Of a DNA stretch of 51,821 nucleotides, positions 17,203 to 51,579 are shown in pieces (the stretch's first letter is position 1; each line of letters begins with the position of its first letter). The notes beneath the pieces were generated by a model. That model had not been told where the DNA came from, searched no databases, and was given only the letters and a program-made list of their open reading frames with translations. This DNA comes from Callorhinchus milii. Its lineage: Eukaryota. The DNA is taken from the NCBI RefSeq assembly GCF_018977255.1, contig NW_024704789.1:384180-436000 (forward strand), written 5' to 3'. The translations under genes and the position numbers were made by a program.

Positions 17203-17530
17203 ATAATAATAATAATCTTTGCATTTGATATAGTGCCTTATCACGACTTCAAAATGGCTCAAAGCACTTCACAGAATATATTGTAAAGTGACTTGATTGT
17301 ATATTTTGTGGGAAAAACACGGTAGCCAATTGCACACAGCAGTGTCCCACAAACAGTTGTGGATTGAGTGACCAATTTTTTTTTTTGAAGGAATTATTAC
17401 CACTGGAAAAGAGATCCGCCAATCGACTAACAACGGGGTTCCTACTTAGTGCTAGGTAAACAGAGGTGTGTGGAATAGGGCAGGAAACTTGCCCAACTTT
17501 TCGCCCTGCTGGGAACTGAACCCAGGTTAC
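17203..17530 (-). mobile_element. tRNA-derived SINE, long variant, 5'-truncated, just downstream of the DMRT1 poly(A) signals
   Basis: Reverse complement carries GGGCAAGTTTCC, GTTTACCTAGCAC..GTAGGAACC, Deu-like block and (ATT)n tail. Confidence 0.9.
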
Positions 17531-17577
17531 AATCAATACACAGGTTACCTGTGAATGTGAGCTTAGTGGTCATTAGA

Positions 17578-17632
17578 TTTATTTTATGTACAGTTAGAAA
17601 CATGAAAATGCCCCTGGACTGTGACATTTATT
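17578..17632 (-). terminator. Candidate DMRT1 polyadenylation signals (AATAAA at 17627-17632 and 17578-17583)
   Basis: Two TTTATT on + about 0.5 kb after the DMRT1 stop. A further AATAAA at 16771-16776 is a possible distal site. Confidence 0.6.
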
Positions 17633-18170
17633 ACAGTAGAATTAAAACAAGTAAAAATAATTCCTCCATCCCGTGTGAAAAGAAAGGTTTGCGGTTCACG
17701 GCCTCAAAGCACAAGTAGCTGCAAGACTTGAGTAAGGATATTTACCAGACTTTTGAAAACCAGGCTTTTGAAAACCTATATCACAAAACCATTGTGATAT
17801 AGCTAATTAGACTTTCTATGCATTCATCTTGATAGCTGATAGTTTGAAACGTACAGTGCTTGCAGACTGACAAGAACAGAACACACTGCATTCAATACCT
17901 TCTTATCGTAGAGAAACATTTTCTTTCAGGGTGGCAAAGGGTTAGTAATTAATTGCTGCGGCATTATTTAATCGAACTGTAATTGTTTTTCCAACTTATC
18001 CAACAACAACAGAAGAACAACAAAAAAAAGACACAATTTGCGTGTCAGCGGAGGCAGATGTCTCGGATTCCTGCCCCGTAAGAGAACCAGCGATGAAACG
18101 TCACCGCCAATACTCACTCACCGCTCTCATTGGTGGAGTTGACAGAGAAGGCGCCGGACTCGGTGATATA

Positions 18171-18262
18171 CTAACACTCTTGTTTAAGGCTCCCGGTGCT
18201 GGTGGGCGAAGTGCTGGACAGAGAGATCAGACCAGAGTCCTGACTACTGGAAGGTGAAAATA
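18171..18262 (-). CDS. DMRT1: DMRT1 last coding exon (equivalent to mammalian exon 5); ends at TAG 18171-18173, ancestral stop TGA at 18114-18116
   Basis: Acceptor TTTTTTCTTGCAG|TA, phase 1. Translates (V)FSPSSSQDSGLISLSSTSPTSTGSLKQEC*YITESGAFSVNSTNESGE*, matching the DMRT1 C-terminus [20 protein letters not shown]. Phase-compatible with the exon at 44539-44710. Confidence 0.93.
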
Positions 18263-18324
18263 CTGCAAGAAAAAAACAAAACGAGAATGTTATCTTAAGG
18301 TGAGAGCGAGCTGAGGCGAAGATA

Positions 18325-18745
18325 ATAAACATCCTTACATTTGGTACAGCACCTTTCACGTTAAGGCCACCTCATAAAGCACTTCACAGGATTTACTGTA
18401 AAGTGTAGTGATTGTATATTATGTAGGCGAATGTGGCAGCCAACTTTCCACAAGCAGCCATGAAATAAACAATCAATTTTATCTGGGGGATTGTTGGCCA
18501 GGACACGCGGCAAAACTCCCTTCTTTTTTGAATAGTGCTATAGCATCTTTAACATCTACCTGAACAGGCAGACAGGACCTCGGTTTAACGCTTCATCCAA
18601 AGGATGGCACCTCCAGCAATGTAGCGCTCCCCCAGCACTGATTTGGAGCATCAGCCTAGACTCCATGAGTTCAAAGGTGCCAAGGTGGGGCTTGAACCCA
18701 CAACCTTCTAACTCAGAAGCGAGAGTGCTACCAACGGAGCCAGGG
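18325..18745 (-). mobile_element. SacSINE1/Deu-type SINE, near full length
   Basis: Reverse complement: GGCTCCGTTGGTAGCACTCTCGCTTCTGAGTTAGAAGGTTGTGGGTTCAAGCCCCAC...GTTAAACCGAGGTCCTGTCTGCC...GTTAAAGATGC...GTGTCCTGGCCAAC...tail. Confidence 0.88.
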
Positions 18746-36420: not shown

Positions 36421-39174
36421 CCTCATATACTGTAATATATTTAAAGTGAATTGACTGTATATTTTGTGGGCGAAACTCGGCAGCCAATTGCGCAGAACAG
36501 TGTCCCACAAACAGTTGTGGATTGAAGTGACCAATTTTTTTTTAACGAATTATTACCCCCAGAAAAGCGAGGATGATTTAAGTCAGAAAATCTACAAGTT
36601 TCCTCTAGTGCTATGGGTCAGTGAACATGGGAGTACTTTATCATGGTCCGAGCGGGTGATAAGTCAGATCTCTTCTGCCGCTTTGGCAGAATCGGTTCAG
36701 TCTGTGATCGGAAACGCTATTGTTATATGTAAGGAAAGTGATGAATGCACATTAGAAGCCACTATGCCAGATAGGATCCAATGGATGGGAATCCACTGTC
36801 CCAGACTGACCTACCACTCCCACTGGAGCAATCACCAACGGATGAGGCTACAGAGCCATGAACTGGCGGAGGATGAGAATGCCAGTAGTGCCTACTCTAC
36901 TTGGAGCTATAAAATTCGCTGGAGTCCTGAACGACTTTGTTATAAGCTCCAAACTGGCATCATCTAGGGATGGCCTGAACATCAACATCGATCAAGGAAG
37001 AAAGGAAAACCTTGTGATATCATCCACGCCCAGAGGTACAATTAAAAGGTGTAGATAGACAACTGTTCAATTCCATTGGTACTTGGCAAGAATGTTCGGA
37101 ACTGTAGATTGCTGATATGTAGCACTGAAGGTTTCAACACTGAACCCAGATGTTGCATAAGAAGCTATTTCTCAGGAGTTTGGCGAGGTCACGGTGCCCA
37201 TCCTCCTCGCCCTCTCCTTCATGCCCGACTCAAGACCTTCCTTTTCGACTATGCTTTTGGTCATCTTCACTCCTCCATCCCCCTTGCTCTGCACCTCTCT
37301 CTGAAACCAATCCGCAGCTTGGGTGCAAACCCCTCATTGTCCACTGCCTTGGGACTACCTCCCGACATGAAGGGTGCTATATCATAGAATCATATCATAG
37401 AATCATAAAATCGTACAGCACAAAAAGAGGCCATTCGTCCCATCGAGTCTGTGCTGGCTCTTTGAAAAGAATATAAATGCAATTTGTTGTTGGTTGCCAG
37501 GGTGTGTAAAAGCGCCTACCTTGAATATGGAAGGATTATTTTAATGCAAGTATAATATCCCAAATGTTGACGTAAGATACCCTCCCCCCTACTATAACTA
37601 CACTACCATTGTGTATGTGTAAGCAGGATGTTTTATTCTCTAAACTCATATTGGGATTTGAGAGACACTGGCAGAGCCTGGATTTATTGTCCATTCTCTG
37701 GGTATTAATATTAATAAGAACATAAAAACGCATGGAATGAGAAAGCCCATTTGGTTCATCAAGTTCCACTTCTTCCAAAGGCACATTAGACCCACTGTAC
37801 CATGCACTTCATCCCATCCATTTTACCTCTTGGAGTTATTTTACCTAAGATAACGTTACTGAACCTCAGATCACAGCACTGAAGCCTTCCCCTTTAGGTT
37901 AATTGACACATAACAACCATCACTACAGCAAGCGCTTGCCCCATCACAAATAATCCTTGTTGCCCCAAGAACATGCTTGATTGAGGATCAAATGCTTTCA
38001 CCCATTCTATAATCAATCCCATTTGCTGGGTATTTATGGAGCATTTCCTTTAGGGAAGAGCATTTCCCCTAGGGAATACTCTTTCACTATGGAGTTAAGA
38101 AACGGGACTGACATCTGAAAGCTGCACACCATCAATTATCTGCATGTATCAATCTCAATGTTCCCACCATGACCTTCCTGAATGGCAAAGAAGAGGGTGA
38201 GGCCAGTACACAGGTGCTAAATGTCTCCAATTGAAGAGATGTTAATTCCTAGGGCTGTTATTATACTGACTGGCTTGGAGGGAGGGGAGGGCAAGAAACA
38301 AAGGTCTCTCTTTGGCCTTCAGAGATCCTGAAAAGTTTAGGTGTGGCTGGAACTGTCAACAAACTACTTGCAAGATACTGTGCCTGTAGAAAATCACCCT
38401 TCCTCCTGCGAAAATCCTGTACCAATTTACCCTGGACATGTGTTAGATCAAACCCCACAGACTAGTGTTGTGAAAGTAAGAGCAGAGCACACGAGGAACA
38501 CAGAAATACTCTGCACAGAAGAGAGGAGGAAGGAAGGGGCATTCAGCTCACCAAGATGGTGCCAATTAAAACAGATTAATAAAAATGCTGACTTCATAGA
38601 AACAGACACAAGCGTTTGTTTGTTTTTTGTCGTCGTTGTGATCAAACAGACCCTGACATTACCTCTGGGTGATGAAGCCGTTTCAGGCTGAGAAGTCCTC
38701 GCATTCGTATTCCTTTGGCGAATCTGGTAAGCAAACTAAACAGTGTTTGTACTGCTCACATAGCACCGCCAGCACAACCTTTCCATTCATTCACCCACCA
38801 CAGTACTGGAACATCACTCCATCAACAGCGATAACACAGCCCTGTTAGAAGAGACATCGCAACCTGCAGAACTCTTTGGCGATCGCTGTCGATAAGCTTT
38901 ACCTGAGGAAACTCAGAGGTTCCTGTCTCCTGGGACCCTGCAGTGAGTGGCATTGCTGAAGGGAGGTCAGAGCTACTCGGTTGATCTCAATCACCTGATA
39001 AGACACGGAGTTCTGCTTTGTTTGGGTGCCAACATGATAAACAATTTAAATGATTGTACACTAGGCTCCCTTTTTGGCAGTGAAATTTTGTGCTCATCAA
39101 GAGATGTTCATGTTGAGAAATGGAACTTTTCTCCATTGAAGCAAACTTCCTGGTCAGGTCGGGCACAAGAGGCT

Positions 39175-44538: not shown

Positions 44539-44710
44539 CATTGGATTTAACATCTGAGAAAGAGGAACCATCTTCCAGGGTGAAGAGCTGAGGGACACAA
44601 GCAGCCGTGCTCAAGCCCTGGCCAAGATACGAGGCAGTGGGGTAGTAGGTATGCATCCTGTACTGCGGAGTCACACCGTGGCCTGAAAACCGGCTCTCTG
44701 GAGTTTTCAT
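44539..44710 (-). CDS. DMRT1: DMRT1 penultimate coding exon (equivalent to mammalian exon 4)
   Basis: 172 nt: MKTPESRFSGHGVTPQYRMHTYYPTASYLGQGLSTAACVPQLFTLEDGSSFSDVKSN+G, matching DMRT1 QYRMHSYYP..SYLGQ..VPQFFTFED. Acceptor TTGCAGCAG, donor G|GTAGGT. Confidence 0.95.
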
Positions 44711-44739
44711 CTGCTGCAACAACAACAAATAAAAGATCA

Positions 44740-47700: not shown

Positions 47701-49276
47701 AAGAAACCCCTCTCTTACCTCCCTCCCCCCAGCCCCACCGGAGTCCAGAATAAAAACTTGATGTATGCATAAAACAGAAGAGATTAGAGGCATACAGTAG
47801 GGTAGAGGCTTGTACAGCATATACTGACACCATTAGTTGGGCCGAACGGCCAGTTTCCGTGCCGTAACACTGTTCCGTTTCTCAGTGCCAACTTCCTTCC
47901 ACTTTGCTGTGCACAAAATTCCCAAGAGAAGAAGAGTTTTGAAAACCCAACATTAATAGTGGTTTGCCTTCAATCCACTGTTGCGTTAGGTAACGCCACT
48001 TCCCTTCACATTTATTCTTCGTGGATTAAATTTCTAATGGCGTCAAATCAGTATCTGGTGATGCGATGTTAATCTTCCTGCTTTTGTTAACCCATCAGGC
48101 TATTTTATTAGTACTGTTACTTATACAAGGTGACTCATTTAATCACAAAACTCATACCGGATCACATCAACAAAACACATCACAAGGTGTAAAAAGGGGA
48201 AAGCAAAGAGTGAGAAAAAAAACATAAAATCATTTAAAATAGACTGCAAAAGGTAGTGTCACAAATTAACATGCCACACACACTTGACTGCACTTGTACA
48301 CATGCCGTAAAAATGATTTAAACGTTTTCTTAAATCTTTTGGAGTTAATTTCATATTGGTTGAAATTGAATCCTGTGACTGAAGAGCAAAGGACGGTACA
48401 GATTTATCGGAATGTGGTTAAACAGGAAGGAGTTCTGCAAATAATGATGCGTGTGTGTGTGTGTGTGTGTGAACATGATGCCAATAAACAGGGTAGCCTA
48501 GTGGACAAATGACATTCCCACATCCAAACTGAAGTCTCAACCTTAATTAAAGTCAATGCCTGAAAATTTAAGATTGTGCAGATTCACAAAAGCCAGTGTA
48601 AACCACTTCAAAGTACAGGGTATATCCTGTGAAGCGCTTTGAGACGTGTCAACAATATGATAAGGCGCTATATCAAATGCAAGGATTATTATTAATATAT
48701 TTAAAATTTTCTCAAGTTAGTAATTTATTCTCTTCTTAAGACAAAATCAACTTCTAAATTAAATCTGAATTTAAGAATTTTCCAAAATTCTGCACCAATC
48801 TTAAAAATACAGACGGTAATAAGGCCAAGGCTATGAGGAAATTTGAGCTTCTCAATCGGAAAATAAAATAAAAATGTTTTAAAACGGTGCAGGCCTGCCT
48901 CCGTGGCTCGCTTGGTAAGAGTGACGCTAAGTGATGCTTGAAGACTTTCCTCTTTGACTGTGCCTCCCCCCTTGCCCCATACTATGACTCAATCTACGAC
49001 TGTTTGTGGGATGCTGCTACTCGTAATTCGCTGCCACGTTTCGCTCATCAATCCATTTTAAAATATATTCTGTGAGGCGCTTTGAAACGTCTCAATGACG
49101 TGATGCACAGATTATTATTAAGTGCTCTGAGACTCTACCTCACATGCAGAGCACTATATACTCAAGAGCACACAGCATTGTCTATGTTATTCTGTGATGC
49201 AAATCAGGAGATTCTTGTTTTGATCCCTCATGTGTCCTGAGTCAAGGAACTCAGGACAGATGAGGCATCCAAACTA

Positions 49277-49386
49277 CAGGGTGACCAAAAAATCGTGATA
49301 CCATTTACAATGTCCAAAAAGTCTTAGAAGAAATTATGATTTTTTTTAGATAATAGGGTAGTTATCACGACTTTTTGGTCACCCTG
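49277..49386. mobile_element. Tiny Tc1/mariner-type MITE (110 bp)
   Basis: TA|CAGGGTGACCAAAAAATCGTGATA ... TATCACGACTTTTTGGTCACCCTG|TT: 24-bp TIRs with one mismatch. Confidence 0.85.
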
Positions 49387-49506
49387 TTTGCATGACCTAG
49401 TTTGCATGACCTTTAGATTACCCTGTTTGTTGGCATCACGTTTGCACTGCACACGTTATCATTGTTTGCAGAACTCCTTCCTGCTTAACCACATTCAGAT
49501 AAATCT

Positions 49507-50092
49507 GTGCAGGGACACAAGGTCAGGTATAACACCCCTAACTGTGATGTTAATCTTCTTGCTTTTGTTAACTCTTTGGGTATTTTAATAATATGCAAAA
49601 ACACAAGTATTTTAACTTGCATTTATATAGCGCCCTTCGTGCAGGGTACCGTCCCAGAGAGCTTGACAGTGGTGGAGTCTGATAACGAGTTGGGGGAGAG
49701 GGAGTGGGGAGATGACCATAAGCACAATCAAAAAGGTCTTTAGGCAGTATTTGAAGGTGGACAGGGAGTGGGCAAGGCGAGGGATTGAGGAACAGAGTTC
49801 CAGAGTTTCAGGGGTAGTGACTGAGGCACGGCCATTGATGGTGGAGCGGAGGGGACGAGGGACAAACAGGAGGCTGGAGCCAGTCGAGCAGAAGCAGCAG
49901 GTAGTGGAGTGGGGAGTAAGCAGGTCAGAGAGGTAGGGAGGTTCAAGGGCATGAATGGATTTGAAAACGAGTGAGCAAATCTTTAAATCTTGAATTAGTA
50001 GTTATTTATACAAAGTGAATCATTTAATCACAAAGCTCATACCAGGCAGGGCAGCAGTGAGGGGTGTTATATCTGACCTCGTGCCTTTGGAC
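49507..50092. mobile_element. MITE-like element split by an antisense L2 3' fragment (about 49612-49990)
   Basis: GGGACACAAGGTCAGGTATAACACCCCT (49512) is inverted relative to AGGGGTGTTATATCTGACCTCGTGCC (50060). The internal core occurs uninterrupted at 48060-48158. Confidence 0.7.
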
Positions 50093-50309
50093 TAGGGATA
50101 GCGGGACAACAAATTGAGCCTGGCAGAGGGTGTGTGTGGACGTTGTGTGAACAGGTGCTGGGTGTTTTGTGACTGTTAACATTCACTACCACCATCTGGC
50201 CTCAGGGATGAAGAATTGGAGATTTTGCAATGGCTGCCCAAACAGGAAACCGTGGCTGTCACCAGCACCATGGAACTGCCCCCCAGCATGAGACATCTGG
50301 GGCCAGGAG

Positions 50310-50530
50310 CAACGGCAACCTGTGTTTATACAGCATCCTTCATGCATGATAGCGTCTTGAAGAGCTGTACGGGAGCACGGTTAGATGCTGCCACTGTAGG
50401 GGGAAGGGGAGGTGACAACAAACGCAGTCGAAGAGGTAGGTCTTAAGGTGGGATTTAAAGATAGATGAGAAGAGCCGAAGCAGAGGGATTAAGGCAGGGA
50501 ATTCCACAGATTGGGGATGTAGTGGCTGAA
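50310..50530 (-). mobile_element. L2 3' fragment
   Basis: Reverse translation FKSHLKTYLFD; TGTGGAATTCCCTGCC. Confidence 0.7.
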
Positions 50531-51579
50531 ACCACAGCCCCCAGAGGTGCTGGAGGATATATATTACCCTAACAGGGAGAAAATTAAAGTATGATCTGCC
50601 CCCACGAAGAGGAAATACTGGAATAGAGCTCACTTGAGCACTTGGTTACTAGGCTCAGGGTGGGCTTGTTCTGTCCGAGAGGCAATCCGGGCACCTGACT
50701 TGCTCGGGGGGTCGTGAAGACAGGTATCAAGTCCGCATTGTATTTAGACAATTTGGGGCCTAGCGAGTTTGGGATGAGGGTGGGGGGGGGGTTGTCTACA
50801 AGGTCAGCCCTCGTTGCCTTGAGGAACACATTTCAGTCTAATTCGCTTAAAGGGGGTAAGTGGGGCATAACTTCACTTAGCAAATTAAAAAAAAGGGAGA
50901 AAATTAAAACTGAATGGACGAGTACCAAAAAAAAAGCCTTGGAGCCAAGGTCCTCATAAGTCGGCGTGATGGATTTGGGGTGGGTGTCCTTGGAAGAAAG
51001 GCACCTTATGTCCCGAGCTCCTCTTTAAGAGCAAGTTGCCATTTTGCCTGTGTCTTGCTGACGAGTGCTCCATCCGTGTTTTTTTTTAAATAACTTAAGA
51101 GTGTCCAATTATGTTTTTCTAATATTTCTCCCCATGGATACACACCTCTGCCCTCCTGGTATAGCTCTTGTTGAGTTGTGTCTGAGACAAGAACCAGCAA
51201 ATTGGTCCTTAAGCCACAGCTCTATCCACTACACTATTAGGGTGGGCTGAGCAGTTTTTCATCCAGTGTTATTTGTCAGGTCACCTGTGTCCTACGATTT
51301 TACACAACTCCCGAAAGGAAAATCAATGGCAAATGTCAGAGAAACCAAAGCACGAAGAGTTCAACACACCATGATATTAGCGCCACCTTCTGTTATTTCC
51401 ACTAAAATCATTTACAAGGTCAGCCGAACAGTTTACCACTACTTGCTGCAGTGGCACGAAAAAGAGTTCAATATTACCTGCCTGGCAACTAACCCAAGCG
51501 AACTGCTAAACGAACAAATAAAAAGCCAAATACACTATCAGCAATCGGTCTATGTCTTATCACTTAACCCACACCACTG

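Follow-up and report, generated by a model that had tools for sequence, protein, structure and literature searches.

A premature TAG in the last exon of Callorhinchus milii DMRT1, very probably a fixed truncation of the chimaera lineage

Results

The premature TAG and the ancestral end of DMRT1

The last exon of DMRT1 of Callorhinchus milii carries an in-frame TAG, and we consider it very probable (about 0.92) that this is a fixed truncation of the chimaera lineage, in which the protein ends ...LKQEC and the old 18 codons likely drift, untranslated, as 3' UTR. We propose that a Glu codon in this exon changed to TAG, likely in the holocephalan stem lineage, and that the change was then fixed.

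The stretch of DNA analysed (the window, G000:C48:384180-436000) is 51,821 nucleotides long and contains the following features, all on the minus strand.

1..410, start of a neighbouring DM-domain gene, presumably DMRT3 (translation; conserved gene order)
17500..18113, 3' UTR below the old stop, with AATAAA at 17632 and 17583; RNA-like contigs extend beyond 17500
18114..18116, the ancestral stop (TGA), which lines up with the C-terminal end in sharks and rays
18117..18170, relic of 18 codons that now belongs to the 3' UTR; its frame is open in C. milii and shifted in the related runs X12 and X14
18171..18173, TAG stop, taken as the point where the main isoform ends; sharks and rays have Glu here, no other letter in 7/7 runs
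18174..18262, coding part of DMRT1 exon 5, 29 codons and 2 nt of a split Val codon; ends ...LKQEC
38663..38723, 61-nt cassette exon with the alternative end DSPKEYECEDFSA; cassette-to-exon-5 junction in run X5
44539..44713, DMRT1 exon 4, 58 codons and the G of a split codon; its end is seen as a loose end at 18263 in runs X5 and X6

An earlier note, made from the letters of the window, had described an in-frame TAG in the DMRT1 last exon with the ancestral tail behind it. We found this to be correct: read on the minus strand, exon 5 gives VFSPSSSQDSGLISLSSTSPTSTGSLKQEC, a stop, YITESGAFSVNSTNESGE and a second stop, with TAG at 18173-18171 and TGA at 18116-18114. The frame around the first stop is thus ...SLKQEC, stop, YITESGAFSVNSTNESGE, stop, and 18 open codons lie between TAG and the old TGA. 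The column of the TAG is Glu in all 17 elasmobranch records that carry exon 5 (16 species), which confirms the proposed origin from a Glu codon, and the shark and ray alignment places the old stop in register with the ancestral C-terminus, as had also been claimed. The whale record P0025 is in register with the tail as well. Twelve of the 18 tail residues of C. milii are as in sharks, including an F and a V that are invariant across 10 aligned vertebrates.

The DMRT1 locus

The gene was identified as DMRT1 of C. milii by several features: exons 2 and 4 match proteins of this name at 98-100%, the gene lies upstream of DMRT3, and its DM domain is followed by the Dmrt1 segment (PF12374), which scored above the cut-off on contig C1. 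The neighbouring DM-domain gene begins at about 410 on the same strand as DMRT1, judged from the open-frame translation, and from its sequence we take it to be DMRT3. The order DMRT1-DMRT3-DMRT2 is described as conserved in the accessible part of PMC6737965, which supports this name. Between DMRT1 and the start of DMRT3 there is a low-complexity tandem repeat (window ~1060-2270) that gives rise to long spurious open frames. Ends of high-copy repeats, with a depth in the thousands, flank exon 5 and the UTR at ~18320-18400 and 17500-17545.

Exons 1-3 matched the protein model P0002 on C1, and exons 3-5 were matched on C48, the contig of the window. The C1 part, at 87.597-87.637 Mb, consists of exons 1-3 and a micro-exon of 21 nt (RNESDEK); exon 3 and the micro-exon recur on C48, which also carries exons 4 (44713-44539) and 5. 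The micro-exon is situated between exons 3 and 4, at ~439914-439894 (-) of C48 and 87637020-87637040 (+) of C1. Many shark and ray records have it, and the bony-vertebrate records aligned lack it. C1 and C48 share a doubled segment of about 36 kb that is 99.0-99.5% identical, and an N gap interrupts C1 at 87642930. C1 87.606-87.645 Mb corresponds to the window from 48781 onward, and beyond the gap a 2.4-kb piece (window 48781-51153) runs in the opposite orientation. It appears that DMRT1 is one gene split over two uncollapsed haplotypes, C1 and the unplaced C48. A true partial duplication was considered and rejected, as the 99.0-99.5% identity over ~36 kb and the N gap point to haplotypes. Since the gene is split between the two contigs, the database models P0002 and P0053 are partial. 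Exon 5 is a single copy in the assembly (one match each in the DNA and the protein search), and PF12374 was likewise found once in the genome. In the models P0003 and P0053, 26 residues (window 44463-44359, -) stand between exons 4 and 5; this piece does not occur in the X5 or X6 junctions and is likely a prediction artefact.

The stop in runs of the same species

Seven of the 24 listed runs were aligned, X1, X3, X5 and X6 from C. milii and X12, X13 and X14 from related organisms; X2 and X4, which gave strong matches, X7-X11 and X15-X24 were left out. The runs were compared as assembled contigs, which drop rare variants, so that a rare allele or minor editing would stay hidden. Each of X1, X3, X5 and X6 spans 18171-18173 within one contig and has no other letter there. 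X1 and X3 come from one study with the same contig and are maybe not independent; X5 and X6 come from two other studies. X1, X3 and X5 have letters other than those of the window at 17546 and 17729, thus TAG stands on at least two C. milii haplotypes.

X5 and X6 are RNA-like by guess, none of the runs being recorded as RNA, and the splice joint supports this status. The exon 5 acceptor AG lies at 18264-18263, and the junctions are seen in contigs of both runs. Contig 26 of X6 joins exon 4 to exon 5 and has no other letter over 17730-18263. At 18263 its match to the genome stops and the end of exon 4 follows, which shows that a spliced transcript carries the TAG. Beyond exon 5 this contig has a further 1046 letters, which would accommodate the 981 coding bases of exons 1-4; 30 of these letters were inspected. 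The X6 contigs break at 17707-17729, which might mark a heterozygous site usable as a control; holes between contigs prove nothing, and no weight is placed on this break. The stop was therefore found in independent samples of the species (4/4 runs), including a spliced transcript contig.

Related runs and the age of the stop

X12 (organism B, depth 32), X13 (depth 3.1) and X14 (organism C, depth 3.2) aligned at 90-95% identity, and all three keep the TAG; X13 and X14 have a depth below 5, and the X13 contig stops at 18137, without the frameshift site. In the X12 tail there are +1 letter behind 18136 and +4 letters behind 18121 (net 5, out of frame), and in the X14 tail +1 letter behind 18134 (net 1, out of frame). 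The stop is common to 3/3 related runs, and the tail behind it appears to have been freed of coding constraint.

The three runs share T18, L26, I33 and A38 with C. milii, in contrast to S, I, V and T of the shark record P0007 and to all or nearly all shark records, and are thus closer to C. milii than to sharks. They are three distinct, mutually different haplotypes with 9-13% tail divergence, which makes it likely that other families are included. We infer from their sequence that X12-X14 are holocephalan. The accessible part of PMC11521621 counts three species of Callorhinchus, puts their common ancestor at 15.5 Ma and dates the chimaera crown group to 173 Ma (148-214), and that of PMC12952989 quotes the split of Chimaera and Callorhinchus as 187 Ma. 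On these dates the stop would have arisen between ~400 and ~170-190 Ma, likely before the living chimaera families diverged. When exon 5 was searched as protein across the stop, no candidates of 26-86 aa were found, a result that is uninformative on other chimaeras; among 30 protein matches to exon 2 and 17 to exon 4, no holocephalan-named record besides C. milii occurred.

Decay of the tail and other readings of the stop

The earlier note had called the tail undecayed, and in this respect it was mistaken: 6/18 residues differ from the Heptranchias record, and the frame is shifted in two related runs. Five of the 18 tail residues are unseen in the 17 elasmobranch records, all in otherwise invariant columns, compared with 7/88 in exon 4 and the pre-stop part (Fisher p=0.03). 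When the relatives were compared, the 30 codons before the stop had 1 nonsynonymous and 3 synonymous variable sites, and the 18 codons behind it had 6 nonsynonymous and 1-2 synonymous ones. Per available site this amounts to 1/~66 nonsynonymous changes before the stop versus 6/~41 behind it (Fisher p=0.012), all these tests of decay being post hoc and on few sites; the ratio of nonsynonymous to synonymous changes taken alone was not significant (p=0.09-0.22). Substitutions per base in the tail, the coding part and the lower UTR were 6/54, 3/89 and 7/162 in X12, 3/34, 3/89 and 3/92 in X13, and 7/54, 2/89 and 9/112 in X14. In each of the three related runs the tail thus changes more quickly than the lower UTR. 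In C. milii itself the tail residues Y, N, T and N are derived, and the relatives that cover those sites show the shark S, D, I and I. Against decay stand the frame of C. milii, which is still open, and its 12/18 shark-like residues. The tail looks intact in this species because chimaeras change slowly; even the lower UTR is 92-97% alike in the relatives. Taken together, the comparisons show no sign of coding selection on the tail. As one case against its own reading, the earlier note had described a fixed TAG behind which the codons decay neutrally in relatives, leaving a simple truncation, and this is the case that our results support.

The UTR segment 17952-18113 (-) is 92-97% alike in the related runs and has no listed indel. 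Its conservation exceeds that of the relic tail, and regulatory elements may lie in it. A crude motif look for a D3U-box found no adjacent CTGCTG/CAGGT pair in the UTR, and the accessible part of the D3U-box paper has nothing on the TAG site (PMC6448818).

The open frame up to the old TGA and the 12/18 residues that match sharks are also what programmed stop-codon readthrough, giving C. milii a second, full-length C-terminus, would leave behind. We nevertheless regard readthrough as highly improbable. The same TAG precedes a frameshifted tail in X12 and X14, and all four tail substitutions assignable to the C. milii branch alter an amino acid at columns that are invariant in 17 records; neither frame nor amino acids behind the stop are conserved among the carriers of the stop. 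In addition, the context reads TGT TAG TAT, as the earlier note had correctly stated, and not the leaky readthrough signal UGA-CUAG.

A recent, polymorphic or sex-linked nonsense allele of C. milii is slightly less probable still. Only four same-species runs, of unrecorded sex, were compared, with X2 and X4 outside the comparison, which leaves such an allele some room; against it, TAG is present on two C. milii haplotypes and in 3/3 related samples. Sex linkage is further opposed by the position of exons 1-3 on C1, a 139-Mb contig, and by the silver chimaera, whose X is a small HoxC-bearing scaffold without Dmrt1 according to the accessible part of PMC12952989. 

A-to-I editing, by which a fraction of the mRNA would read UGG (Trp) in place of UAG, has a very slim chance of being correct. 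No positive sign of it was seen, although contigs could hide a minor edited fraction. No T>C or other letter occurs at 18172 in the contigs of X5 or X6, in which minor fractions are invisible, the tail of the relatives is frameshifted, and the ancestral residue is Glu and not Trp. The suggestions of readthrough and recoding made in the earlier note thus fall together with its recent allele and its consensus base error. The last of these can practically be dismissed: the locus is indeed poorly assembled, split between C1 and C48 with ~36 kb represented twice, but 7/7 runs agree with the TAG, among them 4/4 of the same species from three studies, and the NCBI-derived C. milii database models P0003 and P0053 both already end at KQEC.

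Expected effect on the protein

We return to the fixed truncation. The predicted protein has 357 residues, and the tail would bring it to 376; both lengths were added up from P0002, exon 4 and exon 5 and include the micro-exon. A stop in the last exon escapes nonsense-mediated decay, and the DMRT1 mRNA would escape it because the TAG lies in this position. The truncated protein would keep the DM domain and the region-4 activation segment, and only the last third of region 7 would be lost. The putative region 4, placed by alignment, sits in exon 3 and is intact. In the accessible part of PMC11493790, region 4 activates in all four species tested, and region 7, the last 56 residues and approximately exon 5, activates in gecko and medaka and not detectably in human and mouse. 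Since the activating role of region 7 varies by species, loss of its last third is plausibly mild, and the truncation is probably of small effect.

Just before the stop there is an LKQE (window 18188-18177, -), which is IKQE in sharks and rays and consists of other residues in bony vertebrates. Both forms fit the SUMO acceptor consensus, and we take this as a candidate site.

A cassette exon and a second C-terminus

The 61-nt cassette exon (38723-38663, -) codes for a 13-residue end, DSPKEYECEDFSA followed by a stop, after exon 4. The cassette peptide terminates nine shark and ray records of seven species, eight of them identical, and this end is already in the shark and ray database annotations. 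In X5 we found two contigs, of 59 and 120 letters (a difference of exactly 61), by which exon 4 and the cassette are joined to exon 5; their depths (9.6 vs 7.2) are not a measure of how often the cassette is included. Only the direct exon 4-exon 5 junction was seen in X6. The cassette stop lies 20 nt above its donor, which is the last junction, thus the isoform is predicted to escape decay. This isoform is without all of region 7. A second cassette acceptor, 12 nt upstream, would add VCLP and is also conserved (P0006, P0046). The cassette end shares 'ECE' with the canonical exon-5 end.

It is possible, though we hold it only tentatively and think it rather unlikely as a whole, that the cassette has been kept for ~400 My in cartilaginous fishes, where it would switch DMRT1 between forms with and without the terminal acidic activation motif, and that chimaeras then lost the motif from the long form, so that every chimaera DMRT1 would be a weakened activator. 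If this were true, nature would have tested across the whole chimaera lineage what a deletion in region 7 of DMRT1 does to gonad development. The truncation is a less testable lead than the conserved cassette exon.

Discussion

The fixed truncation removes a false lead, as readthrough, editing and a sex-linked allele are all unneeded. It would mean that a DMRT1 end conserved from sharks to whales proved dispensable in one ancient lineage, and this natural deletion may be useful for mapping the poorly defined DMRT1 activation regions. The TAG may also serve as a simple shared character for chimaeras. It carries a warning as well: where a genome evolves slowly, a frame that looks intact behind a stop can be a relic of great age. 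In the literature searched, with supplements and most subscription papers outside its scope, we found no published description of the truncation or the cassette, and the accessible parts of PMC12952989, PMC12318234, PMC6737965 and PMC6448818 mention neither. The accessible part of PMC12318234 describes a male bias of Dmrt1 in the gonads of juvenile bamboo sharks and its absence from primordia.

Compared with vertebrate DMRT1 (DM domain PF00751 and Dmrt1 PF12374; among the elasmobranch orthologues P0007, P0011 and P0052), the C. milii gene has the same exons, register, DM domain, region-4 segment and position upstream of DMRT3; it differs in ending 19 residues early, without the acidic-hydrophobic end. 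In our alignment sharks, rays, sturgeon, coelacanth, amphibians and whale all retain this end.

Genes with programmed readthrough carry conserved C-terminal extensions. Like them, C. milii DMRT1 has an open frame and protein-like similarity behind the stop; unlike in them, the frame and amino acids are not conserved in relatives, and UGA-CUAG is absent.

Another comparison is Xenopus DM-W, which the accessible part of PMC9250109 presents as a C-terminally truncated DMRT1 paralogue; the C. milii product resembles it in lacking C-terminal activation sequence. Unlike DM-W, exon 5 of C. milii is the sole genomic copy, just 19 residues are gone and there is no sign of sex linkage, the sexes of the samples being unrecorded. 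No extra partial copy was found: exon 5 and PF12374 occur once each, and the doubled exon-3 region, 99% alike, represents the two haplotypes.

Last exons that acquire a stop in one lineage and keep a remnant of coding sequence in the 3' UTR form a known general class. The C. milii truncation is an event of this known kind in an ordinary DMRT1, and it shares with the class a fixed stop near the end, an old stop in register and a tail gathering missense changes and indels. It differs from typical members in hitting a conserved gonadal regulator and in being unusually old, likely at least 170 My, yet still readable because of the slow rate in the chimaera lineage.
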